Shown piece after piece: positions 7,398-53,299 of a stretch of 64,000 nucleotides of DNA. The DNA comes from Schmidtea polychroa (taxonomy: Eukaryota): NCBI GenBank assembly GCA_044892525.1, contig CM097886.1:79918001-79982000 (forward strand). Reading direction: 5' to 3'. A program made the position numbers and the translations under genes. Position 1 is the stretch's first letter; each line of letters begins with the position of its first letter. The notes under the pieces are model-generated. The model was given only the letters and a program-made list of their open reading frames with translations, was not told the DNA's origin and made no database searches.

Positions 7398-10300
7398 TGT
7401 TGGGCTGAGTCGAAAACGTAATTGGCCAAAAATAGAAAAATAAGAAAATAGGACACTAAACATAAAAAATAAATAAACAAAATTAAGAATAAAATAGAAT
7501 AGGATATAAGAAAAATAATAATTAGGAGATAAGAATGAAAACAACAAATAAAAATAGGAAAAATTAAAATAAAACAATAAATTGACGAATAAATGATGTA
7601 AAATTTAATAAATAATAAGGAAATTAAGGAAATAAATAGAAAATATATTAAAAATAAGGAAAATAAGGAAAAATAACCAAAAAACGGGAAAAAATAAATT
7701 AAAGTAAATTAGCGGTACTCAATTTTGATTGGTCCGCATAAATAAAAAATTGGTATATAAACCGACGCCAAAATCATAAAAATCAGTGTTAATCCAAAAA
7801 CTTACTAGGTACCCGACGATAGCAGATTCGTAATCAATTCAAATTCAAGAGACGACTAACAGTAGGAAACTTTATTCAAAGAATTACAGGATTCTAAATC
7901 AGCAAGCCGATTTTAAAAGGACGATTCCTATTTTCGATTCAGCCTAATTTGATAATTCGATAGTAAGGAGATTTTATATTTTTACTTTGTTATCTTACGA
8001 GTCATTAGTATTCATGAATATATGATTTAAATTTTTAAGTTAACCTAATCTCCTTTCATTTGGTCCGTAATAATGATTTTTTAATCTAAATGTCTAAAAG
8101 TATTTTATTCGTAATAAATGATTTATGACAGAGTTTTATGATGAATATTTTTTATTATTGTTTTCATGGTTTTAACATTTATGAGTAACGTGGTGTTGAG
8201 ATACTCCATGTCATGGTGTGAGGTGCCTTTGGGAGCTCAGCCGGTGGACATGGAGTTTTCCAATCACGCAGCTAGATTGGGCCGTAATGTGAAGGCTTCT
8301 TCACGGGTCCCATCGCTGAAGGACTTAAAATTCAATCGAGACAGATTCGAGGAAAAATGAAAATATGAGCTTCACAATGACTGAGCGAGTCTAAAATCTT
8401 CACCTCTACAACAACTTCATAACTTTCGTATCTGAACGATCTAGTAACATCATCGACAATAGATTCAGGTCTTCTAAATGCCGCTATTAAAGCATTTCCT
8501 CGTTTCACAATTTGGCATTCACCTTCGGTTTAACAACGAATTCGGTTTTAGCGTATTTCTTTTAATAGTAGAATCACCATAAATTAGAATGCAACATTAT
8601 CATAAAATCCAACTAAGAACAAACGATATATTTAAGAAATTTCATGTAAAAGTAAAACTAATTTTGAACCATCTGCATACAAACCAGAATAAGAAGATTT
8701 CGTCGTTTACCTTTCGAACCGAGCATCATCGACCAGCTAAGTGTAGTAGAGATATCCAGCAGACTTTAATAAAATCCAACAATAGCGATGAGATGTTTTC
8801 AATTTTCCACGGTTAGATAGACATTCGCACAGCATAACGAAATCCAACTCAAAAATTCCAAATCAAATTTTCATGAGATAGGTACATGTACCGATATGCA
8901 AATACGTGATAATAGTTCCAGTGGAAAAATGCATATGTGGATACACAACAGCGATAGCACCGAGATTAGGAAACGTAATTAGGTGAGAATTTTCAGGTGT
9001 CTCATCCATTAGATTAATTCGCTATGATACAACGTGGTAGCGGTTGAATCAGTAACGTACAATCTCCATGAGAAATTCCACCCGGCGAGTAGTGGTTAGT
9101 TGCCACCATGTAGATAACAATCATCGGATTAACGCTAGTCATAGATAACCGTTGGCGGGTGGTTACATATGCAGATTCAGAGATTTTTTCGAACTTGCAA
9201 ATTTTATACTTGTAATTGATAATTAATTCTATAGATTAAGTTTTTCGTATTAAATAATTTTCTTTTCATAGAATGATCATAGGAAATAATTTTTGTGGTT
9301 CATTAAACGTGATCTAACATTTTTAAGAAAACTTTATTATAACTAATTACACTTAAACATTGAATTTCTTTTCCAACACTAATGTATTACTTTCGGTAGG
9401 TAAAGGTATATCTTGCCGATTGATTTTCTTGTGAATAATTAATTCAGATAGTATAAATATTTGTTCATCTTGTTACTCAATTTAGTTTCTTTTTCGGTAA
9501 TGAGATCTGGTACAACTAATAACCATTGGTGTCGAAATAATGATTTAACGAATTTAGTTCATCTCATTTAGTCCTGCCTTTCCTTTATAGACATCCTAGA
9601 TGATCCCAAATACAAGATCAATACTCAAACCCTGCTTTTCCTGCTCCGATAAGAACGTAGTAATCAGTGATCTTCAAGCTCAGGTAGGGCGCTATAAGAA
9701 AAAGATAGACGAATTAGAAGGGACATGGTTTAGTCCCACCCATATGAAAGAGATTCAGAAAAAACTCTATCGTAGTGAGCATTGTCAGGACGCTCTAATC
9801 TCCGAGAGCCGATCCCAAAGGAGTCTGATCAAGGAACAGTCTGAAGCCCTGCATAAGATGTACCTGCAGGCAGCAACCACCAGAAAGAATGTTAACATCC
9901 CCATTCGGGAAGCCGATGAACTATTTCCGGCACATCATGATACCTCTGTCGAATCGCCGTCATCTTCCAAAAAAGCTTGTCGATAATGTGTCGAAACTCA
10001 ACTTTCGGCGAAACAACCAGATGTCGCCTTCGTCGGAATCAGTCAGACTCCACCCGCAACCACTTCTATGCGCGCAGCACCCCCGAATAATCTATCAGTC
10101 TCGAAACCGAAACGTAAGCAATTATCTCGAGCCGAACGCAAAAAGAGGCAAAAGGAACGAGCGACCGCGAAGCAGCCTGAACGAATAGCTCCTACAACTA
10201 AAGTCACCGATCTACCTGTCATAGTCGATTTAACGACCGGAACCCCAGGGCGAATAATTTCGGCCGCTGGAGTGGCGTGGGAGGAGAATGCCTCTGAATT

Positions 10301-11002
10301 CTTCGACCTGGAAGAACTGTTAGCTGCAACATAGTGGGAAAAATAATGACTCCCCCATGGAATGACCTCATTCTCCAGAGAAACACGAACGAACTATTCG
10401 CGTTTTCTGTTTTGTGTATCTTTCGTATTTTCGTAACTCTGTTGTATAATTCCTCGAATCACCTTGTATATTAGTGTTGGAAACAAAACATTTTTGTATT
10501 AATATAATTTTAACCTTTTTCTCAGTATAATGAGTTCAGTGTGAGATTATAATTAGTATTAACTGTTGTCGGGATGTGAAAAGCATTAGTCAGTTTGCGA
10601 TCCAAACGAATGGCATTACGAAGGGGTGAGGAAATGAATAGACATAAGACCTTCTATCGGCCATCAGGGATGGGAAGTCGAGGCCTCAGTAAGAAGTAGT
10701 CCTAAGGCAGGGGCTCACCTGCTTACTGGTGTCTCGCCGGCATAGCACAGTTCCAACGTGAGGAGATTCACGGGTGCTATGTTGGAGTATAGGTTATGTG
10801 CGGGTTCTGCTCAGGGTTGACAAAATTAATGGCGGGTCAAGTAGGAATGACATTCATCCCCTAGGTTAACAGTAAAACTAAGGATGGTCAACTGAGTAGT
10901 GCCCCAACATTAGTTATCTAATAGTTTGTTCTAAGATATGTTTTTAATTCAGCAAAAAGTCCATCGTATTTAACACCTACTGTAATAACACAGTAATCAA
11001 CA
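7398..11002 (+). mobile_element. Probable solo LTR (3.6 kb) of a giant gypsy family related to the element at 45885+
   Basis: Termini TGTTG...CAACA with TAG(T) on both flanks. It shares with the 45885-51470 LTR the start TGTTGGGCT plus an A-rich tract, an internal ORF with EGTWFSP, the motif CCTTCTATCGG and a covarying hairpin. No PBS or internal genes follow. Confidence 0.65.
9600..10334 (+). pseudogene. LTR-encoded coiled-coil ORF (244 codons) with one in-frame TAA at 9984-9986
   Basis: ORFs 9600-9986 and 10068-10334 are in the same frame and the interval is open after a single TAA. Motifs ELEGTWFSPTHMK and KPKRKQLSR match ORF 50610-51068. Confidence 0.7.
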
Positions 11003-11317
11003 TAGTAGAAGTTTTAAGCTTGAATTTTTTGTAAAAGCATAATATGCTACTCTAATTTTATTTTTAATTTTAAATTTTTGGGGCCCCGCTTTAGCCCGAT
11101 CAGCCCCCTATATCCGCTACTGAGTGCAAAAGTAATTGCAAAAATGAAATTACATGTAGAATATGAGGAGTTTTTGTATTAAAATAATGGTATGAAGTTG
11201 TGCATGTTTGATTGTATGTTGATATTCTTGCTTATACATTAATTATTATTTTTAGAAACTCAAACAAATTAACGTTATAATTTGTTTTAATAATATTTGT
11301 ATTTTAAGATAATAAAA

Positions 11318-11630
11318 ATGGATTCGATTAAGACCCATAGCTCTCTGGCTAATATGTCGACCACGAATGGAAATTGTATCAAGCCACCAGAAACATATGA
11401 CATGGATTCAGATATGGAAGATTTCATATTAGAAACGGAACGATTTTTCATCAAAGCTTTTCTATCAATCAATGCAACGAAGAAATATCAATTTTTATTT
11501 TTTGAGTTGACAAATGGAACATTATAAAGAATGAGAAAAGCTTTTGCTAAGAACAGAAGTTTTATCAATGATCTCAACGAAGCGGTTACTTATCGTCAAG
11601 TAAATGAGGCAAATATAATTGAAAAATAAT
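11318..11630 (+). pseudogene. Possible retrotransposon gag N-terminal remnant
   Basis: KPPETYDMDSDMEDFILETERFF resembles the start of a gypsy capsid; broken by frameshift and stop. Confidence 0.35.
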
Positions 11631-12309
11631 TATACTTTCACTATCAATTTTTATTTTTTTACAATGGTTATCCATCACATTCCGAGCAGTATGTATAAAC
11701 TCTTATAGCATGATTCCTTTTTCAGTACCTTTTTCATACTTCATTTTACCTCAAACAAAAAAAATTCTTGGCCTCCTGGAAAGTTTTCTTAAAACATGTT
11801 AACCACAAATATTGTTTATGCATTTATTATATTCAGTATTTCAGTTTTGTCGAATATAATTTTTGTTTATTTAGAAAACTATAATGTCTTTTTTTAATTT
11901 CATTTTCTCCTCACACTGAAAATGTTCAGTAAATAATCTTAAAATTTCGTAAGAAAGCAAGATAAATATATCAGTGTTAAAAATGAAAGCTTTAATTTCA
12001 CTGCCATGTTGTTTGTGAATTTAGCTTAATGTTGTGTTTACACGTTTCAATATCTTTTCCCACTCGGTTTATCTAGATCATAATATTATATAATAAAAGA
12101 TGTAATATTGAAATGATTTGTTTATGAATATCTTATAGAATAAGGTTTAACGAATTTGCAGGAAACGTAACCCATCAAAACACGAGTCACCAAGGATGAA
12201 TAAATAACTAGACGACCTACCTAAGACGGAAATATGAATATATTCATAAAATATAACCAAAAATCTTCTAATACGACATGGTAATATATTTTGATTTAAT
12301 TAAATTTCA

Positions 12310-12437
12310 CTAATGTGAAAATGGCACATAAGAGGTTTCAGAAGTGAATTTTCTCACTATCCCTTGCTGTGTAGCTGTAGCTATTAAGTCTCCACTCTCC
12401 GTCGATATATATGAAATATTGAGAGTTAGTGCTTCAT
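12310..12437 (-). CDS. ACOT8: ACOT8-like exon 6 (last)
   Basis: Acceptor TTATTTAG; NEALTLNISYISTESGDLIATATQQGIVRKFTSETSYVPFSH-stop. Confidence 0.85.
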
Positions 12438-37200: not shown

Positions 37201-39489
37201 GGTGTTACACATAGCACTCAGATTGTACTCGATCTGGCTGCGCCTTATCTAAATAACGGTAGAACTGTTGTTACTGATAATTTCTACACGTCTAGGTCGT
37301 TAGCTAATGCATTGATAACACAGCAAACTCATCTTCTGAGAACTCTTAGGAAAAACCGAATTGGTAATCCTACTGAAGTCACTAATTCTAAACTCCGAAA
37401 GCATGAAGTTATAGGTCGAGAGAATTCAGGCATTGTAGTAGCTAAATAGAGGGACAAGCGAGAAGTTCTTATGTTGAGCACAAAGCACGACCTAACAGAA
37501 GTTCGAACTGATCAAAACAAATCGCAATAATGAAGATATCATAAAACTTCAAATGATAATTGATTATAATTTTGCCAAATCAGGTATCGATTTATCTGAC
37601 CAGATGGCTAGCTATTTTACGCCTTTACGCAGAACTATTCGCTGGTATCATAAGATAGCATTTGAGTACCTTCTGAGTACAGCCGTTGTAAACGCTCTTA
37701 TTTTATACAAAATAAGTAAACCAAATATAAAAATAGCTGAATTCAGAATTTCTATTTGTGAATCCCTTTGTGAAACATCAATTTCGTCAGTATCCGTTGT
37801 AGTACAACGTCCTCCAGCTAGACGGCATTTAATACAAACGTATACCGCCAGAAACAACCGAAATAGAATTATACGTAAAAGGTGTGTTGAATGCTACAAA
37901 CAATTGCAACAGCAGAAAGGACGAGAAGAAGCAACAAAAAAACCAAAAGAGTAACAACTTTTTGCAGTGGATGTGAGGATAATCCGCCATTATGTACAAA
38001 TTGCTTTAATAAATTACATTAATTTTTATTTTATATTATATTTTATTATATTTCATATTTTCTTTTGTTTTGTTAATTTTTATAATACAAATTAATGAAT
38101 TTTTATGTTTGAAATAAAATTTTTATGATTGTAATCTTTTCGTTTTTCTCCATTTTGTTCCAGCTATACTTCTAAATGTAGATGTAAACCATAACAAAAA
38201 AACCTTAATTTACTTTTATCAAGGTGCCACTGTATATAAATAAACAGTTTAAGCCCACTGACACAAGAAAAACTTGATTATTCAGTAGTATTATGTATGT
38301 ACCGCCGGCGCTACACGTGGAATATGTATAAAAATGTACTGTGTACTGCGGGCGGGGCATATGGCAGTCAACGTGTTAAGCTGATGAATTATCGTGAACA
38401 CGTGTAAAATTATGTTAATTGTGTTTAGGTGTGCTTGTAGATGATTGAGTGTTTAGAGGATTTTGTTGAACCCAGCAGAGTCACCTTTAAAAATGTTTCG
38501 GACAACTGGGGTGATTTTATGTGAAGTATTCCGAGTTTCAACGAAAGAAAAACTTCACGGTATGCTTGTCTACTTTTCATTATCGAAACGAAAATATCCT
38601 AAATTTAGTACAAGAAAGCAGTTATCGCGCATATACACCAGCCGCCCATTAGAAAATAGCACCAGTGTTTCGATCCCTCGAAATGAGTTTCCACGCAGCT
38701 GGGCGATAAGTTATCGCGAATTTATTGATTTTTAAGTGCAAAAAGTGCAATTTGTACAATAAAACTATCATTATTGATTTAAGAGTGCAGAAATTGTGCA
38801 AAAATCATTATTAAGTTTATAAAATGTTATGAAATTATTGTATGCTTAAATAATGAAAATTTACTTAAGACTCCTGCAAAGATTGTGAAAATTAGCATTA
38901 ATCAAACAAATTTCACAATTGAAAATTCATTTTTATAAAATGGAGAATTTTCTATTAAATTAAATTTTAGGAATTTACCTTGAAGGAGTTTTTAAAATTT
39001 CTTCAAAATCCAATAATTGTTTGATATTTGATTTAGGCACAAATTTAGGAGTAAATTTTAAATGTTTGGATTTTTCAGGAGCTTTGAATGACATCGAAAT
39101 ATTTGAGATACTCACATCGTTTTGCTTGACGGACAGGAGTAATTTTCTAAAGTTTTTGCTTTCAACTTTATCTAATACTTCATAATTGAGGGAACTATTA
39201 GGAACACCTTAACTTGTTTGTAAGTAAATATTTTCATCATTATGTTTTACCTTTTCTCAGATAATACACATGTATATTGTGAAGAAAGAAATTTTCAGGA
39301 ACTATATTATATCCCACAGAAATTCCTTGACCCACAACTAAACCCCCAAACAACTGTTTCTTATTAAAGCTACCAGCAACCAGGCCTCTAAAATTTAATG
39401 TATATTTTTAATTATTAAAATAAAACCAACTGGTAAACTGTATTGCTCAGCATTTTTAATTTAAATATAGATTCGATAATGTTTTTCAT
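12310..39489 (-). CDS. ACOT8: Acyl-CoA thioesterase 8 / TesB-like (double HotDog), 6 exons, 300 aa: complement(join(12310..12437,26249..26449,30235..30383,38979..39207,39251..39387,39431..39489))
   Basis: Spliced by hand with GT-AG sites and consistent phases; 903 nt = 300 aa + stop. Motifs LFGGLVVGQG, LHNIHVYYLRKG, AFLSDY, SSLDHNIWFH and GDLIATATQQGIVR match ACOT8 LFGGQIVGQA, VHSLHCYFVRAG, AYISDY, VSLDHSMWFH and GVLAVTCAQEGVIR. Confidence 0.9.
12862..14198. mobile_element. Non-autonomous TIR DNA element, superfamily unresolved
   Basis: TIRs GAGGCCGTCCATTAAAGTACGTCA versus rc GAGGCTGCCCATAAAGTACGTCA; TAT on both flanks (3-bp TSD candidate). Confidence 0.7.
13247..13830 (-). mobile_element. 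Possible solo LTR nested in the TIR element
   Basis: Abrupt composition change to a purine-rich minus strand; AATAAA near the 3' end; ends in TACA; the 5' TG is not clean. Confidence 0.35.
14452..16375 (-). mobile_element. Tc1/mariner DD39D (plant-mariner-type) transposon, degenerate
   Basis: 30-bp imperfect TIRs CTCCCTCTGTCCCATAATACT..., TA left flank and CA right flank. N-terminus RKLIYEDLLSEIDNGILKRGAY..VSIQTV. Catalytic QDNATPH...NSPDMNILDLGYF with 39 residues between D2 and D3 (one is a stop). Confidence 0.9.
16990..17686. repeat. 21-bp minisatellite (TTGAATAATAAATTTATAACC) with ~258-bp higher-order block; resumes briefly after the Polinton (~25754-25797)
   Basis: Read directly; a variant unit recurs at 17231 and 17489. 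Confidence 0.95.
18527..18598 (-). ncRNA. TIR copy of tRNA-like Pol III unit 3
   Basis: Reverse complement of 24839-24910. Confidence 0.55.
18576..18845 (-). CDS. 89-aa coiled-coil ORF in the TIR (copy 1), unknown function
   Basis: ATG-initiated and identical to 24592-24861. Confidence 0.65.
   Translation of the reverse strand: MDELKERMRNELNEVKHKRMKRREEEPLEYIKELMVDNEKYRHFYMKAVDVADIRLKKMKQLQERVKELESIIYSLKNDKNPILDSAVG
18961..20809 (+). pseudogene. Protein-primed family B DNA polymerase (pPolB), 5'-truncated at the TIR boundary
   Basis: LKFIDSLNF, GIYPYDY, NIRGGVS, YIDATALYS, KILNNSVFGKT, MDTDS, KGI motifs. The N-terminal region is absent; the frame begins inside TIR sequence. Confidence 0.92.
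20800..21317 (+). pseudogene. Polinton packaging ATPase (FtsK/A32-like), lacking Walker A
   Basis: Walker B LVIFDD and RGRHNNCNVIYISQ present; no GxxGxGK(S/T). It abuts the end of pPolB, suggesting a deletion junction. Confidence 0.85.
21329..22727 (-). pseudogene. ZnF + parvovirus-type PLA2 + RVE integrase fusion; frameshift at ~21800
   Basis: CETC..H..KKH; HNYTRPGT..DQAALKHDIAY; WSADL, VIDLYTRFA, CDKGTEF, (frameshift) VERLNRTLK; C-terminal KFKIGDRVRI..FYNNELQK. Confidence 0.9.
22757..24049 (-). CDS. Polinton/adintovirus major capsid protein (double jelly-roll), intact 430 aa
   Basis: Size, context and motifs NNFFPNLFS..L.LG..IE...PG, LFGFLQNY, RPRYILIGF are typical of Maverick capsids. 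Confidence 0.8.
   Translation of the reverse strand: MNNINLKIQEKNKLNLDYNKEFTHEIKKNDVLKISPTSGSIANLNRMGDIVFQSLQTSNPIDICNAKLYYKIELEIEANKDITLENNFFPNLFSNMRLKLGSSEIETVLHPGVYSTMLNFILTGCDYKNEYGELTGWIPDVNKGDLDKDGLDVNHGYHKRAELYKSKKFEGYFELKHLFGFLQNYNRILHNVFIEFICNRVEGDKRLFYGAVDTKAKLKLSTLELHIPEWTLNPHSEIKLLERLNSNKSINVNYLNRICSEFSMTEGSTYSIKVANLAYRPRYILIGFKEVDSSFQKNNNLFIQKIGVDNLKTIQIQLNSSYYPINRMEFNIENNENIFPYLNYIETCYDFKVEPQLSLKDFKNLYSIFCINVSDQDDRLAINNVDVTLHVTKDSNFKAKVYTLILEEKKIEMKLYGGKISIIENFRGDS
24106..24178 (+). ncRNA. tRNA-like Pol III unit 1
   Basis: A box TAGCGGAGTGG at +8 (24113); GGTTCAATT with T at +54 (24159); T7 terminator 24181-24187; cloverleaf stems poor. Confidence 0.5.
24349..24421 (+). ncRNA. 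tRNA-like Pol III unit 2
   Basis: A box TAGCTTAGTGG at +8 (24356); perfect T-arm ATGGG-TTCAAAT-CCCAT with T at +54; T8 terminator from 24422; anticodon and acceptor stems do not pair well. Confidence 0.65.
24592..24861 (+). CDS. 89-aa coiled-coil ORF in the TIR (copy 2), unknown function
   Basis: Identical to 18576-18845. Confidence 0.65.
   Translation: MDELKERMRNELNEVKHKRMKRREEEPLEYIKELMVDNEKYRHFYMKAVDVADIRLKKMKQLQERVKELESIIYSLKNDKNPILDSAVG
24839..24910 (+). ncRNA. tRNA-like Pol III unit 3 (in TIR, overlapping the end of the 89-aa ORF)
   Basis: A box TAGCGCAGTGG (24846); B box GGTTCAAATCC (24889) plus a second GGTTCAAAT (24873); T9 terminator from 24913. Confidence 0.55.
26249..26449 (-). 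CDS. ACOT8: ACOT8-like exon 5
   Basis: AG/GT sites, phase 1/1; LIAFLSDY..SSLDHNIWFH. Confidence 0.88.
26652..26862. mobile_element. hAT-Charlie-type MITE (211 bp)
   Basis: Imperfect TIR CAGGCCTATACAAC / rc CAGACCTGCACAAC; flanks ATTTAGAT and GTCTAGAT (6/8 match, NTCTAGAN-like). Confidence 0.7.
27073..27198. repeat. Foldback inverted repeat (126 bp)
   Basis: Perfect 17-bp outer (AAGAGGAATTCCATTTT) and 15-bp inner (TTGTACATTCATTTA) complementary arms. Confidence 0.85.
28260..28800 (-). pseudogene. Merlin (ISXO2/IS1595-like) transposase remnant
   Basis: Decayed frames MQQRGILHNPRMC, a G.G.QVEI(N)E.LF-like block and SMIDSYTPEFMWKR (cf. YL.EFMWRR). Confidence 0.55.
29300..29800 (-). pseudogene. 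pogo/Tigger transposase remnant (CENP-B HTH)
   Basis: EMEKVLLLWIDDQTSHNVPISQSLIQSKSLTLF. Confidence 0.7.
30235..30383 (-). CDS. ACOT8: ACOT8-like exon 4
   Basis: AG/GT sites, phase 2/1; FPFMLTPVDP..MSYWFTLKPDI. Confidence 0.85.
30672..30831. mobile_element. 160-bp MITE with 26-bp perfect TIR
   Basis: TATAAGGTTTGAAAAATTCGAAGGTT and its reverse complement. Confidence 0.75.
31024..31147. repeat. Foldback element, 49-bp imperfect arms
   Basis: AAGCTTAAAGATTATG...TTTTTGATATTCA paired with TGAATATCAAAAAC...CTTCAAGCTT. Confidence 0.8.
31149..31212. repeat. (TA)n(TG)n microsatellite
   Basis: Read directly. Confidence 0.95.
31534..31820. repeat. Tandem duplication, ~148-bp period, 2 copies
   Basis: AATCGATG..GTGATATGAAAAG..CACCGAGAAAGAG at 31534 and 31682. 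Confidence 0.85.
32169..35591 (+). mobile_element. hAT (Tip100/ZMYM1-like) full-length transposon
   Basis: Perfect 8-bp TSD CCTATGTG (32161-32168, 35592-35599); imperfect 13-bp TIR CAG.C.CG.ATTA; subterminal CGTAGGCCCTAGGCAC repeats. Confidence 0.95.
32810..35378 (+). pseudogene. hAT transposase with one stop (34016-34018) and one frameshift (A-run ~34723-34730)
   Basis: WLIYS..CYIC, LPFRG, DSTPD, SYDNA, CAAHSLNL, ETRW, ERSFSKLKRIK, RLSALTLLSIE. Confidence 0.92.
35975..38375 (+). mobile_element. piggyBac transposon, full length (2401 bp)
   Basis: TTAA TSD both sides (35971-35974, 38376-38379); 14-bp perfect TIR CACGTTGACTGCCA. Confidence 0.97.
36307..38022 (+). pseudogene. piggyBac (PGBD4-like) transposase, disrupted
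   Basis: VDESM, TDNFYT and GIDLSDQ catalytic motifs; Cys-rich tail (CVEC..CSGC..LC..CF..LH); TAG at 37447-37449 and frameshifts. Confidence 0.92.
38979..39207 (-). CDS. ACOT8: ACOT8-like exon 3
   Basis: AG/GT sites, phase 1/2; LNYEV..NFRKLLLSVKQND..SFKAPE. Confidence 0.88.
39251..39387 (-). CDS. ACOT8: ACOT8-like exon 2
   Basis: 43-bp introns on both sides; QLFGGLVVGQG..HNIHVYYLRK. Confidence 0.9.
39431..39489 (-). CDS. ACOT8: ACOT8-like exon 1
   Basis: ATG at 39489; MKNIIESIFKLKMLSNTVYQ resembles the TesB/ACOT8 start; phase-2 donor. Confidence 0.8.
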
Positions 39490-42449
39490 AATAATGATTT
39501 ACCTTGAATGAAAAGTTTAATATTATTACTAAGTATTCTGAATGTATTGTAAACAATTTTACTGAATTTTAATATTATAAATAATAAATTTAGATTTTTA
39601 ATTTGTATTTCAAAAATTATATATATTGAAACAAATCTTGAAACAAAACTGCATATAAATAATTACTGTTTATTATATATAATGTTTATATATACTGTTT
39701 ATTATTTATTATAAATTATATTATATATTAGAAACATCTCTATTACATAAAAGTATTAAAATAATTTTTAAATGGCAAAGTAATTGATGTAATCACTCGA
39801 CTTTATGGGTGGTCTTTTGCTGTAATCGTGCAAAGACTTCCGTTATATTTGAAAGAGATAGCAAATGCAAGTAAATTATAGAACAGTTGAAAAACAATTG
39901 ATTAAATTAAAAAATGACAATGGAAATCTAACTGATAAGCCCAGAAATTCGAAGAATGACGCAAAAACATTGTTAAGGAAAGAAGAAGCAAAATGAATAT
40001 ATTATTAATTTCAAGTATAGCTTGATTGTATTGGCAATAAAGGTATTCGTAATAAACTTAGTTGATGATATCGATAGCTCCTAATTAATGACCAAGAGTT
40101 TTAAAAATTTTAACTATAATGTTCTGATAGAATTGTCTCAGTATAAAAAATAAATTTGTTTATTTTATTAATAAATGTTGAATGAAAAAAACAAAAGTTA
40201 TATTTGATGATTTTAATCAGTTCATTTTAAAAGAATATAATATCAAAACATTCAATGTGAATTTAGTTCAACAGGATCTTTTAAAAGTTTGTCATAGAAA
40301 ATGCAATTCATTTGAATTTACTGATTTGAAATAATAATTTGTTACTAATCAATATAATCTCTTCGTAAATTTGCAAACTCCCTATTTAAATGCAATGTAC
40401 CCATTAAAGTGTCCTATATAAAGATGTTACGTATAAAATTTCGAATATTTTATATTGTATTGTGAATTTTAGGGATCAAGTTTTTTTAAATACAATTCAA
40501 ATTAAATTTTTCTGAGAAGTTCTTACAGAAAAGTGGTGCTTAGGTCATATCTTAATATCGATGCCCTTGGATGTGTATATTTCCGTCCTGGATTTGGCCG
40601 TTGAATAGTTTTCACATTGGTTAGAGAAAGGATCAACTATCCCTCCTATGGAAACAGCCTTTTCTAAATATCCCAATCATAAAGTGAGGTCAGTCACAAA
40701 AGAGGCAAATAAGTGGATTAAAAACACGTGATTTTGAATTGTTTACTTTATTTAAAAATGAAAAAATTAAATATAATTTAAATATAACCAAAAACGAGCA
40801 AATCTCTCTGTGATATATGTGATGAAAGATTCAATTGAAAATATCATGATCCACAAGTTGTTTAAAGATAGAAACTAGACCTTAATGTTTTACTGATCAT
40901 TCTTTGTTCCTCACCTATCGAAACCGAAACAAATTTATTAATTGATGTTTAACTTTTCTTTTGGTTAGAAATTTTATAATTGCAGCACAAATATCGTGTT
41001 TTGTAAAAGGTTTAATTTTTTTTGTTATTATTGAGGTCTCACTATTTTTAGATTCCTAACAATACTGGTTCTTATGTAAATTAATTTGGACGATGTCTTG
41101 ATATAAATATTTTATTAAATATTCAAAATTACCGATTAAAATTCTAGTTGTACAAGATTTATCTTCGAACTATTCGCTTTGATAATAACCTACAAAAATT
41201 CTTGCTACTTATGTTTTGTTAAATGTTATGTAGTGCGTGCTGTGTAAAAATTACTGCAATTGAAAGGTTTGTGAAACGTTTTTGTCTCTATCTGGTTTTA
41301 GTTATTTCGCAGGATTTACCTTTGAAAAAGTTCTTCAACGCTGATTTTTAGGCAACAAACTGAATTTTTGCTTGGTTTTTATATTAAGATTTTTTAATAT
41401 AAAATTTAATAATTTTATTTTTGGTCTTTTAAAATATATTTTATTGCGTGCTGTATTAAAATGATTGCAATAATAATTCTATTTCTTGTTATAATATTTC
41501 TACTAATTAATCAATTTATTCGTAATGTTTTATTTACTTAGTACTGTTTTGTTAAAATATTAAATATATAAAAATATAATTATACAATAAAATTATACAA
41601 GAAATTACTATATAAAATATATCCCAAAACCATTTATTAAAGAAAAAAGCTACTCATTAAAAAAAATCGTCATTTGTCAGTTAAATATATACAAGGTTCT
41701 GTAAAAAATTGTACACAAAGCGAAAATAATCAGAATAAGCTATACACCATTAATTAAGATTAACACAAGGAATAGTCAATTGTCGATTAATTATATACAA
41801 GATTGATAGCTTGATGACTTTTTGACTGCTTAATTTGGTTCTTTGATCTTTGATTTAGTTCTTCATTGTCTCACCTCAGCAAATACATTTGCCCTGTAGC
41901 TTCTAGGCACTGTCCTATAATACTTATTTAAAACTAACGTGGTAATGGGCCTACCCTCATCATTCAACATCATTGAACAACTTATACTTTGTTAACTTAA
42001 TTCAGAAAGTGGCATTCAACCAGAGTTGAATGATTTGCAACAAAATGAAAATGTTAAAGTAAACTTTATGAAGTAGAAAAGGAAGAGAGGCAGTTGAAAA
42101 AGATTTAGCAAAATGACAACATCCAATCAGATGTTGCTATGGAAAAACACATAGAAGCTGACTATATCTCCGAGTCAATCCTATACATTGATGATGCACA
42201 TGAGATTAAAATATGATTGATGAAGTCGCATAATGTATTATAGACACAGATAATGATGCTGAAAGTTTCTCAAACCAATTCATCTGTAATTATTTTTCAC
42301 GATGTTGAACTAAAAATTTGATAAAGTGTCAAGGTTATCAATAATATCATAGCAGATGTGCACAAAGATGATAACTCATGTACCACACATATTTCAGAAC
42401 AAAGACATCAAGACTTTCATTAACCCATCAATGGTGTAAGCGTCAATCT

Positions 42450-43060
42450 GCTTCCTGGAATGTGATTAATCGGCCATGGTTATTTTATTCACTACATCAA
42501 TAATACATCAATTCATTTACTGCTTGAGTGTCGACTTTTGCTGCCTTCTATTCACGAATCATTTACAACACGGAAAGGGCAGAATGAAGGATATTTCGTG
42601 GAAAAGGTATTGATGCTAGAGTACAGGTTCAAATACAATCTGAAAAACAAAGATAGAAAGATGTTTTGAAACTAGTACCTACTTGAATTGAGTTCTTAGT
42701 ATCTCAAAATTTGGCGCTGCGTGGTCACTGTTATAATCTAAAAGATAATTACAAATTAAATATTGTGAACTGTCTCTCTTCTCGATCCTATTTTGTTAAA
42801 CCCCGTACAACATGTCAAATTCAAAATCAGTTTTATATATTTCTTTCTTCTACATTCAGTAAAAAAAATTTTTTTGCCGGGAATGTTTCTTAGGCTATAC
42901 TTTTAATATATCAATGAAATTGTAATAGCTTTATAATTATATTATGACTGATAATGATTATGTTTCGCTTGCAAACAGATTATGTAATTGCACGACGGTG
43001 CCGCCGTTGACGCAAATTTGAATATTTTGCCCTGAGCACCAAATATCTTCGCTACGCTTT
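42450..43060 (+). mobile_element. Degenerate hAT remnant
   Basis: FLVSQNLALRGH (cf. FLA.QNLAFRGH); end motif CGCTACGCTTTTG resembles a CAGTGGCGTAGC-type TIR. Confidence 0.5.
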
Positions 43061-43426
43061 TGGTTATAAGGGTAGATCAAGAAATATATTTTCGTGATTT
43101 TAGTTAATATGATTGGTTAACCAATCCTAAAAGCAATGAAGATGCAAATAAACTAAAAATATTTTTTCAGTGAAACAATAATAATAGTAATAAGCAAAGA
43201 ATTTTAATTCAACAAATTAAAATTATTTTTCTGAAAAAGTTGTTAGAAGTTGATAAATAGTTGATAAATACCCATAGTTCAATTAAACAACTGTAATGTA
43301 ATTGAATTCGATATTATGCTGAATCAAATTAGAATTAATAAATATTGTTTATTATTTGCAGTTTTTCATAGACGTCAGGGGATATTAGTTCACAAATATA
43401 AATACTGGCTTAATTTAATGAAACCC

Positions 43427-43501
<75 letters not shown>
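43427..43501. repeat. (AAT)25 microsatellite
   Basis: Read directly. Confidence 0.98.
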
Positions 43502-44427
43502 CATATAAATACTAACTAATTTATTCTATCTAATCAACCACTTTAAATTTTTTTGCAAAAGAAAAGCTTGAAATTAGTAACCTAGGTTTAGTAAGCTAAA
43601 TTTTAAACATGATTGAGCTCAGGAAACTGCAAGTCTTTTGACGTAAAGAATACATAACATAAAAATTATACGAAATATTTATATAAATTTTGGCAACGGT
43701 AGATATTTATTTCTGTGCAAAGCTTAGTTAATAAATATATTTTTATTTATTTATTTATTTATGAGAATTCGCTAAGCTCAACAAATCTGATGTATTTAAT
43801 TATATGTCTTTCGTGTACTAATTATTTATAAATCTAACCAGTAGTATAATTGTATCTTTTAATTATTTTTTTTAAATAACAGACTTCTCAAAAAAAACTG
43901 AGTACCCCTAGCTATGTGGATACTTGCAAATCCTACTTACTTACTGTTGCATAATATGTTTTCATTATGTGTGTGTATATATCCTCACAATGTTATGTTT
44001 CTTTTAGTTAATGCGTTATTGTTGATTTTTTTTCAATGTATTTAAACAAATTGAGAAGCTCTGAGTTTTGCCATCACGACATTGTCGCCGAAGCCGATAT
44101 AAAAAATGTTATGTCAAACTGTGAATAAATTAATCATAAACACACTGAACTAGATAAAACAGAAAACTGAATAGTAAAACTATTTTTAAAATAAAAATTG
44201 TAACAACCATAGTTTAAACTTGGCTGGATTTCATTCAGTTAAATATGAAATTAGTAACTTAATTAAAATTGAATTTATATGGTTTAATTTATTTTTGTTT
44301 AACTGAATCATTAACGAATACTTGTTTGAAGAAAAAATAAGTTTGTAGTTATTAACTACTTATTAGCTAATCTTTTTTAAATCTTCAACTATTGATATTT
44401 TCCTTTATTAATAGTTTATATGATAAA

Positions 44428-45216
44428 ATGCAGCTTCAGAATCATATTTATGGAGATATACCATTTATAAAATTCGAATTTATATTCGAAATGAGAGGAG
44501 AATTAGCGAAATTTTTTATCAATAATTCTATGATTAAATCTATAGAAAATAAATCCAATTGCAAAATAAATTTAACTAAAAGAATACTGAATCGTCAAAT
44601 AGAAAATTTCCCATGGACTAAATATCATATTTTGGAAATTATATCGAATAATGAGAGAAATATCAAAATCTGCAATCATTTACTGGAGCGAGCAATTCCT
44701 CTATATAAGAAAAGAAAACTTTATAAAAAGCGTAGCAATGTCAGCATTTTTACCAATGAATTTCATCCTGATAATACCGATCTCTATTATCCAACTCAAA
44801 GAACTGGTGTACTTTCTGGACAATATTGCGAGTTAGAGTTGAATAATATTTTATCATGCGAAAATAGATCCAGCGAATGTTGGGATTTTCCGTGGAAGTC
44901 TACAAATTCAGAACAAAGTGGCTGTTATATACCTCAGCATTATGATAATTTTGATTCCATTCGTGCTGTTTATCCTGATTTGATCAATTTTGAAGATCAT
45001 TTTAATCCCGAGATCGAAAATAGTGCCTGTCCGAAGCAATCTTACTGTGAAGTGAAAACTCACTGCCTTTGTGATATTGACCCTTTAACGGGGCTTCAAC
45101 ACAACAATAAAACGAAACGCATGAAAGTTAAATATAAACCAATTAAATCCAGACGCGGTGAAACTGATCAAAAAAATGATTTGATAAAAAATATTATTAA
45201 ACATCTTATTAAATAA
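44428..45216 (+). CDS. Intronless 262-aa ORF with a degenerate KH-like domain and Cys-rich C-terminal half
   Basis: Long open frame in AT-rich DNA; AATAAA overlaps the stop. FEFIFEMRGELAKFFI..IKSIENKSNCKINL..LEIISNNERNIKIC fits type-I KH periodicity, but the GxxG loop is absent. Confidence 0.6.
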   Translation: MQLQNHIYGDIPFIKFEFIFEMRGELAKFFINNSMIKSIENKSNCKINLTKRILNRQIENFPWTKYHILEIISNNERNIKICNHLLERAIPLYKKRKLYKKRSNVSIFTNEFHPDNTDLYYPTQRTGVLSGQYCELELNNILSCENRSSECWDFPWKSTNSEQSGCYIPQHYDNFDSIRAVYPDLINFEDHFNPEIENSACPKQSYCEVKTHCLCDIDPLTGLQHNNKTKRMKVKYKPIKSRRGETDQKNDLIKNIIKHLIK

Positions 45217-48149
45217 AGTGTTTTTTTTAAATAATAAATATTACATTGAAACCGTGTTGAAAATTTTCTTCGTTCAAGTTACAATTAATTTTGGGGTTTG
45301 GATTTTATTTTAAATAATTAATAATTTTTATTAATTTTTATGTAATACAATATTATTGGTTAACACTAGATTTACGGACTGAGCCAATTTGACTAATTTA
45401 AAATTCTTTTGCTACATATATATAATACTGATTTACTATATTTTGAATGCATATGTTGGATTTTGGATACCTCATGAAATATAGGTCAATATTAATTACT
45501 CTCCTCTATCGACTCCCTCATTTTTTTTATATCGAATTAGGTATACCTATTTTTACGGCTATTTTTACCTGTAAACCTAGTGTTAAGAAGTCAAATTATT
45601 TATGCAAATATATCGCGTTGCATGTGATAAAAACTTTATTGAGGTGTAATGCCAAGAAAATATACAAAGAAAAATGAGAAATCATTCCATATAAATTATT
45701 GTCAGATTTTATAAGAATTAATGGATATTTCACATTTTAAATAACCCTAATTTCTCGCGTATAACCTGCACCTAATAAATTTCAATAATTTCCATAAAAG
45801 GTAAAATTTTTCACTTATAAACCACACTTAGGTACTTCCGTGTTATCTTACCCCCAAAAATTAAATTATAAAATACAATTAAAATGTTGGGCTAGAACTG
45901 ATTTCTAGACCCAAAATACTAATTGTGACTGAAACGCGTAGGTACACAGCAAGTAAAAAAGCACCAAGTATAGTTAAATATTAAAACCTACACCAAATAA
46001 ACAATATTAACTAAAGGAGAAAGCAACAAAAACATAAACAAAGAAATTAAACAAAATTATACAAAAGCAAGAAGTGATGCAAAAATCTAACTCAAAAATA
46101 ACCAAATAAACACAGAGTTACAAAAAACAGACTCGAATAACTTAAAAGACGATAAAAACAGTAAAACATTCCAGAAAAACCCAGAACATTCTATAAAAAT
46201 GGCGATGACCATCACAAAAGTTATCTAGAACAACAAAAGTTAAGGAAAATAAATAAATTAGTATTAAAAATAAAAAATCTCAAAAAGAATTCATAAAAAC
46301 ATCAGTTAAAATAAAAATTAAATTAAAAGTAAAATAGAATGTTCTGGAACCGTTCCAAATCCATCATGGACGTAAAATTAATGAAAAATAATTAAAAAAT
46401 AAAAATATAAAAATAAAAACAAAAATTATTGCACAAAAATTGCCATTAAAAATAGCAAAATCGTAAAATAGAAAATTCTGGAATAAATAGAATTCGAGTT
46501 TGTTTTAATGCATCAATACATACACGTGTACAAAATAGGTATATATACTGACGCGTTTCAGTCAGAATTAACCATTATTTTATGCCAAAATTTTTGTGTC
46601 AACAAAATATCAACAGTGAGTACGATTGATTCATTTTATCTATTATTATTTTATTTTATTATTATGTATTGTTGTCTCAACTATGTTAAGCTATTAAAAT
46701 GTTTTATATTTTGAATTTGTTTAATTAAAGTTTTTTTTTGATGTACGAATGTTCAACGGCGTACCGGTATTCCTGCGTCGTTGTTCAGTCCTGCATTTAA
46801 TTTTTGAATTCGATTTCACATGCACACATACATTATTTATATTATACTAATCACTTATTATATGGCTCTTTTTGTGTTCGGGTCCTTCGGAGGTCGAACT
46901 ACTTCATGGTCCTGCCATGGAGTTAGGTCGAGGAAAACCTCCGCCTGACTCTTTGTATTTATGTAAGGTCGACCGTAAATGGTTGACTCAACACATAACA
47001 CTAAGGTTTGTGGAAGTGGTCACAGTGGGGCCATGGAAGCAATATTCTTCCCGACTCATTACGTAATATACAATTAAACTCAACACTTAAAATTCTGAAC
47101 AAATAACTCCACACTAAGGTCTTAATCTGAGTAGAACTCATACTTAAATTAACACAATTATACAAATCACAGCAATGTAGATGGTTGATCAGTTATGCTT
47201 AGACATATGCCGAATTGGGTTTTCGTAACAGTCGTTTATAGTAATCAGAGTAATGGAAAGGTTAAAGATATTCGGCATACGTGTAAGTATAACATAATCT
47301 GGTTAAGTCTTCGAATCAATATAACTGTAAATATTCCGGACCCCAAAAATTAAGTTGCGAAATCCCATCTTAACATACTTATAAGTACTCGGTTGTAATA
47401 ATCTTTTATGTTGATTATAAAACTACAGGTGATAAATGACTATGTCGTTGTAGGTACGAATTATAGCCAGAGAATATAAATTAGGAATTCAGAAATTGAG
47501 GTATAAATCGGGAATGGTAATGACCAATCTCCTAATGTAAAAAGTCAATCAACTTGAAACTAGTTATACATAGATATACTGCAACTCTGAAGTGATAAAA
47601 CGATACCCAGAAATCGGTAAGACAATGTTGATAATAGAAAGGGAAGTTAGAAAGAAGTATACCAAGCTGACCAAAAATTAGAACTCAAAAATATGAAATT
47701 ATAAATTAGGAATACCGAATTACAAATTGTAAATCATAAAACCTAAAATTTTAAATCAGAAAATATAAAATCATAAATGGTAGAATATCGGATTATAACT
47801 TATAAGATATAACATTATAATTTACGAAATATAAATGGATAAATTATAAAATATGAAATTTTTAATTGTAAACGATAAAATTATAAATTATAAAATATCA
47901 ATTCCTAAATTACAAAATATAAAAATTATGAATTGCAAAATAAAAATTTATAAACTATAAAACTTAAATTTGCAAGTTATAAAATATAAATTTATAAATT
48001 ATAATTACCTATAAACTATAACCACCTATATATTACTTAACAAAATGGTATAAATATAGAGTATGAAAAAACTAGAATTAATACTTAACTTAGAAATTTC
48101 GAAATATATATAGTTACAATAAGCTTGCCTCTAAGTACAAAAATCCCTT

Positions 48150-48850
48150 TAAGATTATAAAATAACTGTAAAATTATTGTAATTCTTAATATCATCACTA
48201 GGATTTCTATTAATATTACTAATATTATTAGTATTACCATTATCACTAGTATCATTATTATCCCTATTCGTATCATTATTATTACTATTATTGCTATCAT
48301 TATTATTAATATGATCACTATTATTATTATTATTATTACTATTATTACTATTATTATTGTTATTATTGTTAATATTATCACTANNNNNNNNNNNNNNNNN
48401 NNNNNNNNNNNNNNNNNNNNNNNNNNNNNNNNNNNNNNNNNNNNNNNNNNNNNNNNNNNNNNNNNNNNNNNNNNNNNNNNNNNNNNNNNNNNNNNNNNNN
48501 NNNNNNNNNNNNNNNNNNNNNNNNNNNNNNNNNNNNNNNNNNNNNTTATGATTATTACTATTATTAGTATTATCATTATTATTATTATTATTACTACTAT
48601 CATTATTAATATTATCATTATGATTATTATTACTTTTATTATTATTATTATGATTGATATTATTATTATTATTAACCTCGTTATCATTACTACCCTCATT
48701 ACGACCATTATTATTACCATTATCCTTATTATTATTATCGTTACCATGGTTATTATTGTTATCCCGGTTGTTGCTATTAGTACTATTAACGATAAGTTAT
48801 ATACGACTTGACTAGTATTATTACTAATACTGCCCTTAATATATATAATT
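48150..48850. repeat. (ATT/ATC/ACT)n low-complexity tract with an assembly gap (~48383-48545)
   Basis: Read directly. Confidence 0.9.
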
Positions 48851-49952
48851 TAATTGTAGATAGACATATATATATATATATATATATATATACTTAGTCA
48901 TGGTGGAATATATTAGTAAATGCATAAATATTATACTGATTATATATTATCATTATTACTACTTATAAAAATCAATATCCCAATCTGATATTGATTTTAG
49001 GATTTCCCCAATAAATTAAATATAGAAACAACCCTTTGAGCCAATCAGAGGGATCAGAATTCGGAAAAACTATTTTTAGCAACACCCCCCCCCCCCTCTG
49101 GGAGAATGTTACCATTATTCAAGCCACCTAGGGATGTGAATAAGGGGGTAGGATCAGCTATGCAAGTTAACACTGAATATATAATCAAACTTAAGTTTTA
49201 TCAAATCAACCTAAACGAGAAATTTTATTCATCAAATTGCCTTGAATAATAAAGTACTGTACACCCGGGTTATAGATGCCAAGCACCATGATTTTCACCT
49301 AAGAACGAGAAGCCGAACTCCAGGAGCTGAATCTCTAACTCTCCAGCTGAAAAACGATCGCCAAATTGTCCCTAAATTAAACACATACGATGAAAGAATA
49401 AATTACCCCAAATGCATAGACGATGATTTTACCACTTATAACGAATACAACCAGGGGAAGAGTAAGTGGGCAAGAGACTGAGCTCGTCACTAGTACCCTT
49501 CGCCTGACGTAATCGCATTTAGTGGAAATATTCACATCTACAGAAAATTACCTAAAATTTCCAAAATTTTAACTTATAAAATTCAAATTACCAACTAGTG
49601 GTAAATAAATGACGAATGATTAAATCAATAATTTAAAACAAAACCATTTTTTTTTGAGATTTTCGGATCGGGTATGGATTTTCTGATGTTAACACTTAAC
49701 TCTAATGAATTTTTATTTAATTAAAAAGTATATCAATAGATTAAATAAAATTTGGTCATGTGAGGAGGATTTATATTAATTATAATAAATTTAGTAGTAT
49801 AATAAATTTAGTAGTATAATAAATTTAGTAGTATAATAAATTTAGTAGTTAAGTACTATTGATTTTGAACAAGAACTTTCTGTATGTTTGTTATGACATC
49901 TATTTATAAGCCACGTTGGCTACGAGCGGGCCTTAATATTCATATTATAGAC

Positions 49953-50318
49953 ATGTCGCAATCGAGCTCTAGCAGTGACGAGGGTACTGACCATCAGACG
50001 ATCACCCGTCTCCGGACCCGGTACATCTGGCACCATATACATCGGTGGGGTCAGGGAAGGGACCTGGACTGCGCAAATAGAGTGATCCGGACGGGCCCCG
50101 AAGTAGATGCCCCGGCATGGGTGAAGGTGGAGCCGGGGAATAACCGGTAACAGGAGGCCCGAGATCAAGCAGCCTGGGAGGTGGAAGCCGCTCAGATGCG
50201 ACTCAAGAAGATCGAGATGCAAATCAAGGCGGAAAAGGAGGGAGTGCCTCTGGAAGAATTGGAAGAGGTCGAGGCACACCCGAGAAAGAGGGGGAGGCCC
50301 CGCAAGCACCCCGCGTAA
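49953..50318 (+). pseudogene. LTR-encoded ORF A (121 codons, one in-frame TAA at 50148-50150) ending in an AT-hook
   Basis: The frame stays open past the TAA: QEARDQAAWEVEAAQMRLKKIEMQIK..PRKRGRPRKHPA. Followed by AATAAA at 50441. Confidence 0.65.
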
Positions 50319-50609
50319 TTGTGGGAGGACAATTTGCTCGACATTGACAATTTGTTTTTATATGAACTAATTATTAGGAATCTGCTGTGTTTATTTTATC
50401 TTTTAATTTTGTATTAATAGACGTCGGGTGTTTATTCTCGAATAAAGTATTCTTAGGTGTTTTGTAAATCATTTGATAGATGGGGGGGGGTATAAGGATG
50501 CCCTAGTAGGAAATGTTAAGATTAATTCATTGATTTTAATACTTATTGTCCTAACTTTATTGTTGGGTGTAATGGGAACTAATGAATTTCCTCTTTAGTG
50601 TACAAGTTA

Positions 50610-51068
50610 ATGGAAAATCTCCGGAAGGATCGGGAGCAGGCCCAACACCAAGTCGACGAATTTCGGATCCGGGTGGACAAGTTGAAGGGAAAATGTCGAG
50701 ATTTCGAAGGGACCTGGTTTAGTCCCGAAGCAATGAAAAAGAAAACCGCCCAGATCCTCCAGCTGCAAACGCAGGCCGCCCAAGACCAAATGGAAATCCG
50801 CGCCCTGAAGCTACAGGTGCGGGCGCTCGAAACTGAGAAAAACGAGCAGTTGGTACAAGGGGCTATAGCCAGACAAATACGGCCACTGGCTGTGGACCTC
50901 GCAACTATATATCCCCCAGCCGCTGAAAATAAGCCCAAAAGGAAACGGCTTGGCCGAAATATTCGGGAAAAATTGAAGAAAGCTAGGCTGGCCGAATACG
51001 AGCGGCAAGCAAATTCGTCACCAGCAGCCACGACGGAATTGGCCAGTCCTACCAATAAGCCTGTTTGA
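50610..51068 (+). CDS. LTR-encoded ORF B (152 aa), coiled coil + basic motif
   Basis: FEGTWFSPEAMK and KPKRKRLGR shared with the 9600-10334 ORF. Confidence 0.75.
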   Translation: MENLRKDREQAQHQVDEFRIRVDKLKGKCRDFEGTWFSPEAMKKKTAQILQLQTQAAQDQMEIRALKLQVRALETEKNEQLVQGAIARQIRPLAVDLATIYPPAAENKPKRKRLGRNIREKLKKARLAEYERQANSSPAATTELASPTNKPV

Positions 51069-51474
51069 ACTTATATTCGGTTTTAGGTGTTTTGTAGTAT
51101 ATTTATGTATTGTTGTAGTCTTCAAATAATATGTTCCTTGTTAAAATAATGCACATTTTGTAGTGATAAAATAATGACTAGTATAGTTTATGATTGCCTG
51201 GAAAATGGGAGTTTGTGCATAAGGTTGGGAAAACAATTTTGATAAAGGGACCTGAGAAATCGGACACACACCTTCTATCGGTAGTCCGTGAACCCATGGA
51301 GTACTCGACAATTATAGTGCTTTGATGCGCTCACTTTTTGCGAGTACTCAACCCCTTGGTACAGTACCAACGTTGATTACTCAACGGGTACCAAGCGGAA
51401 ACCAACGTTGTATTTTGGGTTACGCTGGTAACAGCACTCAATCATTCAACCACCAGTAACCCACCATACAAATT

Positions 51475-51492
51475 TGGGGGCTCAGCCGGGAT
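51475..51492 (+). promoter_or_regulatory. Primer-binding site complementary to the tRNA-Pro 3' end
   Basis: TGGGGGCTCAGCCGGGAT(TTG); 16/18 identical to the canonical TGGGGGCTCGTCCGGGAT. Confidence 0.9.
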
Positions 51493-52189
51493 TTGCAAAT
51501 TTAATTGGTGAAAGAACCCGAGAATAGATATAATGGAGAGAGTAAAAGCTGATATAAAGTAATATGCATTCAAGATTGAGCAAATTGTTTTCCCAAACAC
51601 TTTAACTTAGTACATGGATATGTGAATATGATAAAATGTATATGAAATGTTTAAATGAGTGATTGAAGTTTTAAAGTGTGTCAACATATGAATGTATTAA
51701 AAGTGAGTATGAGAGTACTGTACGAATAGCGTAGTAATAGAATGAAATGATAATAAACGAAAATTAAAACTAAAACAAAATATAGGAAAATTGTAAATAT
51801 TAACGATTAATAAAATGTAAATATAAAGAAATAATCAAAATCTAAAAAATAAGGAAAAAAGGGGGATAGCACGCTAATAAAAACAGAACAAATGAACAAC
51901 GTAATTAAACTTAATCAGAAAACGCGTAAAATAGGGCGATAACGAATGGGATATGGGTTATATATAATTAAAACGATTGTAATAAAGTCACAAGATCATG
52001 AAAGAATTTGCGCGGGATAGAACATTAAACAGAGGGAGACGGGGTTGTTAAGAGTGATAAGTAGAAGGTAAAGGTTTATTGAAGCACTAATGAAATAAGG
52101 TGCTCTGGATATTAGAGGGAAAATGATAAAGGGGGAAATGACGCGGAATATTAATAAAAAGAGAACTTTAATTAATAAATCTTAATTAG

Positions 52190-52672: not shown

Positions 52673-53299
52673 GGAGATGTTGTCAAATAAATTTCTTGTG
52701 AATGAATATGGGATGATAAAATTTTTAAATTATATTAAAAAATCCATTATAGCAACCGAAAGGTATAAAACATACGATGAACATAGACATATAAAGGACA
52801 CAGAATACGTTAAATAAATAGACAAGCAACACAGCAATTAGAACTAAAATCAAAATTGAATGCAGGACTGATCATAGTCGTATGAATGAGCTGATCGATA
52901 AGATCAGTACGATTTTTACTTCCAATTTTCTTTTCTTCCTGTTTTATTATTTTGGCATAGAGTGATACGACAATGAGGGGATGACAAGTGAATCGTCCTT
53001 ACGACACTTGCCCGGATGGGGAAATCCTGATCACCCTGACGAGAGAATGTAGTAGGATCCATCGCAAATGTTGGGGAGTTTCTGTCGAGTGACTGATCAC
53101 CACTTGTGGGAAATGAACGAACGCGATTATTATATTTGTTTTGTCTGGGAGACTGGGGTTGACTAAAAGGGTGAATAAAAATAGAAAAATAGAAATAAAA
53201 ATTGAAAAACGCGCGCTAAATGTTAAAAATTTAATCCGAGAGCAGCTGCGGATTTGAAGAAACCGTTTTTGGACTTCAAATCAGATGAGAAATAATGAT

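Follow-up and report, generated by a model that had tools for sequence, protein, structure and literature searches.

A conserved bulged RNA stem near the 3' end of giant planarian long terminal repeats, and its possible engagement of primer tRNA-Pro

Two long terminal repeats (LTRs) lying in one 64,000-nucleotide stretch of the Schmidtea polychroa genome (GenBank assembly GCA_044892525.1, contig CM097886.1, positions 79,918,001 to 79,982,000 of the forward strand; the window) carry the same bulged stem near their 3' ends and have almost no alignable DNA in common otherwise. The question raised by this locus is what the shared motif is, and what it engages. Our results support a real, selected and cis-acting RNA structure, and we weigh below whether its partner would be the primer tRNA of the element or a protein. 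The two copies, both identified from sequence, fold and covariation, are:

10741 to 10781, plus strand: first motif copy (stem H3), with stem 10741-10748/10774-10781, bulge 10749-10756 (CCAA at 10753-10756), hairpin 10757-10772 and single G at 10773.
51355 to 51395, plus strand: second motif copy (stem H3), with stem 51355-51362/51388-51395, bulge 51363-51370 (CCAA at 51367-51370), hairpin 51371-51386 and single G at 51387.

An earlier note on this DNA had described both 41-nucleotide (nt) strings, which were located exactly there, and its proposed shape was recovered when each string was folded alone (a stem of 8 base pairs (bp), an 8-nt bulge, a 6-bp hairpin and a single G), with z-scores of -3.27 for the first copy and -2.73 for the second against 200 shuffles. 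The shared CCTTCTATCGG that it reported upstream also stands, starting at 10650 and 51271, that is, 91 and 84 nt before the motifs. Its assignment of the copies to "both LTRs" has to be divided: both sites do lie within LTRs, but these LTRs come from two different families (A and B) and are not the pair of one element.

The covariation seen between the two copies holds across many more. Among 45 distinct motif sequences from four families (A to D), 11 of the 14 pairs show changes on both sides and 98.1% of 630 cells are paired, compared with just 25-47% in slid controls; 6 of 51 distinct strings, being indel or decayed copies, were left out of this alignment and 4 were re-anchored. Because kinship among copies inflates such counts, a tree was made solely from the upstream flank of 94 distinct copies. 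On that tree 29 of 40 possible changes in true stem partners fell on the same branch, whereas 20,000 shuffles of the partners averaged 8.4 and never exceeded 23. G-U cells outnumber A-C cells by 26 to 3 (43 distinct cores, 13 pairs each), and the fold therefore belongs to the plus strand, which is the coding strand of the element, and likely to RNA.

The core pattern matches 4,557 places in the genome (control, 0). A selection independent of the motif started from an 18-nt primer binding site complementary to host tRNA-Pro, of which the genome holds 1,058 exact copies (control, 0). Of these, 90 loci were used, namely the first 100 of the list after 3 tandem copies and the final 7 entries had been removed, and 82 passed a structure search blind to the bulge sequence; CCAA was present in all 82 and the opposing G in 81. 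The remaining eight comprise five that still have the CCAA bulge, two cut by insertions and one unrelated locus. When loci were picked instead by a protein motif encoded in the LTR, the fold was found in 26 of 30, with CCAA in 24 of these, and an old decayed family has kept the same bulge with no primer site.

Within the bulge, conservation is uneven. The earlier note had read AGUWCCAA as fixed, and this is true of CCAA, of the first A and of the opposing G, but not of bulge positions 2-4, which changed 5, 5 and 4 times on the tree; the corresponding numbers for positions 1 and 5-8 are 1, 1, 1, 0 and 0. Variants carry ACCA, ATCA, ATGA, AGGA or ATTT before CCAA. The closing C-G, C-G and U-A pairs never or hardly ever varied, and the apical loop varies freely. 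The constraint is A-n-n-n-C-C-A-A together with the opposing G and these three closing pairs. Pattern searches with the first or the third base of CCA changed gave 137 and 27 matches, as against the 4,557 with CCA, and among the matches listed (100 of the 137 and all 27) there was no multi-copy family with another triplet; they mostly looked like scattered single decayed variants of known families, the exception being one repeated string without the hairpin. None of 49 triplet-changed copies checked had a primer site behind it, compared with 4 of 30 chosen through the upstream 11-mer; age confounds this contrast, most old copies being solo LTRs.

The elements that host the motif are the following.

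7398 to 10909, plus strand: solo LTR of family A, bounded by comparison with two other family A copies and by its flanks.
45885 to 51466, plus strand: 5' LTR of a full-length family B element, matching the downstream LTR at 99.6-99.9%.
55291 to 63507, plus strand: start of the polyprotein region of that element, from Pfam matches; several frames in this copy.

The family A solo LTR has TG...CA termini, inverted ends and a 4-bp target duplication (TTAG), and no primer site lies behind it. The family B 5' LTR includes a stretch of N at 48384-48545; its 3' counterpart is outside the window, its end falling about 37 kb further downstream, nested insertion included, and an AAAA target duplication is common to both LTRs. 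The insertion nested in that 3' LTR is a compact gypsy-type element of about 5.9 kb. The full-length element measures about 38 kb with a 5.6-kb LTR, and many copies have a single frame of 4,791 amino acids (aa). Pfam domains comprise zinc knuckles, MATH, a fusion glycoprotein and protease within the window, and reverse transcriptase, RNase H, integrase, ankyrin, a TRAF finger and BIR-RING beyond it; protease, reverse transcriptase, RNase H and integrase stand in that order. A RING-finger open reading frame (ORF) lies at 52190-52672, between primer site and gag. This layout is shared with Burro (GYPSM1), the planarian giant Ty3/gypsy element with a described frame of 4,873 aa, in the Gag zinc knuckles, MATH, the same pol order, ankyrin and BIR, as well as in the mononegavirus-type fusion protein between gag and pol (PMC6431247). 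Set against that published description, domain layout and size make this likely a Burro-like giant Ty3/gypsy element, and we place the family A LTR in another family of that kind; the account, in the part that bears on this, covers proteins and gives no LTR RNA structure or primer.

Downstream of the motif in the family B element lies the primer site, and the motif itself is one part of a larger cassette.

51261 to 51288, plus strand: stem H1, with a conserved CUUCUA loop, from alignments and folds.
51290 to 51295, plus strand: GAACCC linker, complementary to the 5' strand of the tRNA T arm and possibly akin to a primer activation signal (PAS).
51299 to 51349, plus strand: stem H2, whose conserved internal loop surrounds GCUCAC (51329-51334, and 10713-10718 in the family A LTR).
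51408 to 51471, plus strand: stem H4, a long predicted hairpin closing at the LTR end (10802-10904 in the first LTR).
51467 to 51474, plus strand: spacer of 8 nt between LTR end and primer site.
51475 to 51492, plus strand: primer binding site (PBS), exactly complementary to the 3' 18 nt of the host's tRNA-Pro.

The order is H1, linker, H2, the motif (H3, third of four predicted stems), H4 and then the primer site. The motif falls within the last 250-280 bases of the LTR, and was upstream of the primer site in 87 of the 90 loci at a distance of 112-173 nt. The 11-mer CCTTCTATCGG is part of H1 (51271-51281, and 10650-10660 in the first LTR) and has 4,916 exact copies in the genome, as against 123 for its control. 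Single-sequence folding of 10 copies from the four families, and of the two copies in the window, predicts H4; with this hairpin formed, the primer site would come to lie about 12 nt or less from H3's base. The spacer from the terminal CA of the LTR to the primer site is 7-8 nt long, nearly fixed within families and part of the base of H4; in most LTR elements it is shorter, a few bases only. Searched against Rfam at the gathering score, the whole window gave a tRNA as its sole match and nothing at either motif site, and four family representatives searched at E <= 5 gave three weak matches, none of them inside the cassette.

Where the cassette stands in the transcript bears on any function it may have. 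A promoter is predicted upstream in the first LTR:

7728 to 7790, plus strand: predicted promoter of the first LTR, with a reverse CCAAT box, a TATA box at 7754 and initiator-like bases near 7783.

This block, conserved in all three aligned family A copies, lies about 2.95 kb upstream of the motif; a family B promoter was not located. Of 36 family A copies, 27 have a poly(A)-signal hexamer in the stretch 200-290 nt upstream of the bulge, and just 5 and 1 have one in the flanking windows, copies having been assigned to families by a simple rule. The hexamers being upstream of the bulge, the cassette would follow the predicted RNA 3' end, and it is thus likely part of U5, so that genomic RNA would contain it at the 5' end alone, next to the primer site. 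Contigs from sequencing runs that may be RNA cover parts of 48600-56000, one of them spanning 51163-51389; they carry no information on strand, start or end and do not enter into this placement. Directly before H1, and downstream of the predicted poly(A) signal, families A, C and D have a splice-donor-like GUAAG, which is absent from family B and altered in the window's own copy at 10642-10649. In some retroviruses U1 binding acts in poly(A) control, and by analogy GUAAG could do so here. The LTR also contains a second conserved structured RNA at 8190-8310, with a UUCG hairpin, common to families A and C; a primer-site-like string at 8230 was rejected as such, being part of a hairpin of this RNA and not conserved as a primer site.

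What, then, does the motif do? Our first choice, offered as a tentative one that falls short of probable, is that the cassette is a primer-engaging U5 domain. The host tRNA-Pro UGG and CGG types have identical 3' 18 nt, and differ at the anticodon wobble base and at one T-loop base; consequently, only a second contact could discriminate between them. (The tRNA genes stand in long tandem arrays, the UGG type with a 475-bp period and 1,555 matches to the 3' motif and the CGG type with a 442-bp period, and Lys and Arg arrays are also present. A tRNA-Pro(AGG) gene was sought and none was among the matches listed, so the comparison covers UGG and CGG.) CCAA, which lies in a predicted loop and is partially exposed in folds, has a single Watson-Crick match in tRNA-Pro(UGG), namely U33-U34-G35-G36 of the anticodon loop. 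GAACCC matches the T arm by 6 Watson-Crick pairs, as do 1.2% of random 6-mers, and the CUUCUA loop of H1 fits the D loop with 2 G-U pairs. According to this hypothesis the element RNA would be transcribed through the 5' LTR, H4 would bring the primer site beside H3, and the 3' 18 nt of tRNA-Pro would anneal to that site. Docking of the tRNA-Pro(UGG) anticodon loop on CCAA would then help to select or hold the primer for reverse transcription, and in three of the four families GAACCC would take the freed T-arm strand. The specific pairing of CCAA with the anticodon loop of tRNA-Pro(UGG) is a narrower claim, and a doubtful one.

Known systems offer partial parallels. In human immunodeficiency virus type 1 (HIV-1) an A-rich loop contacts the anticodon loop of tRNA-Lys3 and the PAS contacts its T arm (PMC11251516; PMC13191261). 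As in its U5-PBS region, a four-base word upstream of the primer site complements tRNA positions 33-36 and a T-arm complement lies further upstream, such that the proposed order of T-arm word, anticodon word and primer site would be that of PAS, A-rich loop and PBS. The HIV-1 contacts have been shown experimentally but differ between isolates and are debated (PMC11251516; PMC13191261), whereas the contact proposed here would be made by a fixed bulge, set in a stem of its own 112-173 nt upstream of the primer site and kept across families without alignable flanks. The type 1 human T-cell leukemia virus (HTLV-1) is primed by one tRNA-Pro(UGG) isodecoder with a primer site that fits all tRNA-Pro types, and selection accordingly needs something else; the source, in the part bearing on this, describes any contacts beyond the primer site as unknown for this virus (PMC11251516), and we claim no homology between HTLV-1 and the present motif. 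Pairing between RNA and tRNA beyond the 3' end is found in the LTR retrotransposons Ty1 and Ty3 as well, although there the T and D arms take part and the site is split (PMC5371799), while in the present elements the 18 nt of the site are contiguous and the anticodon is the additional contact proposed.

However, a number of results weigh against a primer-engaging role, and it should be interpreted with caution. The match amounts to just 4 bases, and 20% of random 4-mers find a pairing partner within this tRNA's free part. UUGG at the junction of spacer and primer site gives CCAA a duplex of equal energy, about -3.5 kcal/mol. A bulge C can pair with the opposing G, which could explain the conservation of both C's without any tRNA; the two bulge C's are unpaired with a probability of about 0.3-0.7 in 9 of 10 folded copies and of 0.03 in one. 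The near-invariant closing pairs suggest a compact fold read by protein. GAACCC, present in families B, C and D, is missing from family A, and compared with three control tRNAs, Lys(UUU), Arg(CCU) and Arg(UCG), it also fits the first two and is thus not Pro-specific; a match like that of CUUCUA, tolerant of G-U, is reached by 22% of random 6-mers. The U5 placement is firm for family A alone, the poly(A) hexamer occurring upstream of the bulge in 10 of 20 copies of family B, 5 of 21 of family C and 0 of 8 of family D, and in neither of the two window copies. No lineage has switched to CCGA, though tRNA-Pro(CGG) fits the primer site. Moreover, covariation between bulge and anticodon is not measurable, since all elements with motif and primer site have the same primer, and searches by LTR end, triplet pattern and envelope relatives found no related family combining the motif with another primer. 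The same LTR end and spacer with a different primer site occurred at 16 places, all of them point-changed Pro sites, one broken site or unrelated DNA. A compact envelope-bearing relative has LTRs of about 1 kb, a short U5 and a different primer site, presumably of Trp type, followed by short repeats of part of that site; 10 stretches upstream of its envelope gene gave no motif-model match within its own LTR, and two strong matches nearby belong to neighbouring LTRs on the other strand.

Nearly as likely as a primer-engaging role is that H3, together with H1 and H2, forms a protein-binding site on unspliced RNA, either a packaging signal for Gag or a Rev/Rex-like export element for an Arg/Lys-rich protein encoded in the LTR; packaging, and binding by the LTR-encoded basic protein, had been suggested in the earlier note. 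The candidate protein is:

50610 to 51068, plus strand: ORF B, LTR-encoded, 152 aa, with an EGTWFSP motif and an Arg/Lys-rich stretch.

A broken homologue of ORF B lies in the family A LTR at 9600-10334, and the basic stretch, present in both families, speaks for such a role. ORF B belongs to no Pfam family and had no protein-atlas match at 0.9 or above, and protein searches with it and with the MATH family returned just close family B copies or host genes. The invariant closing pairs and the opposing G point to a shaped pocket, the second conserved internal loop, in H2, has no match in the tRNA, and, as presumably holds for signals of this type, RNA reading through the 5' LTR would be the only RNA to contain the motif. 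Against this, nothing links any protein to this RNA, and the structured RNA at 8190-8310 is an alternative candidate target for the basic protein. Retroviral packaging signals, furthermore, mostly lie 3' of the primer site and expose G-rich loops.

A more ambitious form of the primer-engaging hypothesis appears unlikely to us: that a T-box-like codon reader evolved independently in an animal retroelement, with CCA and the following A presented to the anticodon of tRNA-Pro(UGG) and the adjacent loops engaging the D loop and the T arm; in this way the U5 RNA would cradle the whole primer and choose one isoacceptor among several whose 3' ends are identical. In the T-box riboswitch, too, the specifier loop is an internal loop that offers a codon-like triplet and then a purine (PMC11404447). 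It differs in that the GAA/AGUA S-turn across the loop has no counterpart here, AGUA preceding the triplet on the same strand and being variable, and in that neither an elbow platform nor a UGGNACC antiterminator is present; T-boxes are, in addition, bacterial (PMC11404447). We rejected membership in the T-box class itself, as the S-turn, elbow platform and antiterminator that define it in that source are missing from our alignments and Rfam gave no match.

Still less likely is an internal pairing, in which CCAA mimics the CCA end of the tRNA by binding a UUGG that spans the last base of the spacer and the start of the primer site, and keeps the site closed until priming. A U precedes TGG in all 90 spacers save that of one unrelated locus, the energy equals that of the anticodon duplex, and H4 would place both sites together. 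On the other hand all primer sites begin with UGG, which makes the match nearly automatic, neither side varies and hence there is no covariation, and the primer site has other pairing partners in the folds predicted for the free RNA. We consider it very improbable that the four stems together make up a catalytic RNA of the retroelement, whether a self-cleaving ribozyme or one of another type. Retroelements do often carry small ribozymes, and near-invariant loops on covarying stems would suit one, but no Rfam family matches, a cut in U5 would sever the first DNA strand's template, and a reading of the hepatitis delta virus type fails by eye, given that the H1 loop lacks the conserved G and family C lacks a P2 partner. 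As to the functions proposed in the earlier note, a trans-activation response (TAR)-like element recruiting a transactivator to the nascent transcript is scarcely tenable, for although a bulged stem-loop does occur in an LTR that encodes a basic protein, TAR acts at the very start of the transcript and has a conserved apical loop beside its bulge, whereas this motif lies downstream of the basic protein's own gene, about 2.95 kb downstream of the conserved TATA box in family A, and its apical loop is not conserved; nor does a dimerisation element fit, the variable apical loops sharing no palindrome and the self-complementary GUAC occurring in some bulges only.

The interval between the two LTRs contains further mobile elements. 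A Polinton/adintovirus-like element at 17687-25753 has inverted ends of about 1.3 kb, a protein-primed polymerase B, a packaging ATPase, a double jelly-roll capsid and an integrase with a phospholipase A2-like domain; a weak tRNA-like match lies within it at 24349-24421. Broken transposase genes of hAT type and piggyBac type occur at 32696-35378 and 36274-37954.

The motif is apparently undescribed. The literature searched on Burro and planarian LTR elements, on retroelement primer sites and on anticodon contacts gave no account of it; the original Burro description with its supplements (Grohme et al. 2018), which lay outside that search, may cover LTR features, and the PMC13524379 supplement, in the part that lists its six Schmidtea elements, gives no primer tRNA for them. 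What is known already is the kind of element, and that structured U5-PBS domains with extra tRNA contacts exist in retroviruses, Ty1 and Ty3 (PMC5371799). How one tRNA is chosen among several with the same 3' 18 bases is an open question even for HTLV-1 (PMC11251516). A bulge unchanged across very divergent families, a short RNA and two natural tRNAs would allow primer choice to be tested directly in elements other than retroviruses. Were the reader of the bulge a protein instead, the motif would still be an undescribed cis-signal of the largest known LTR elements, though of an expected kind.

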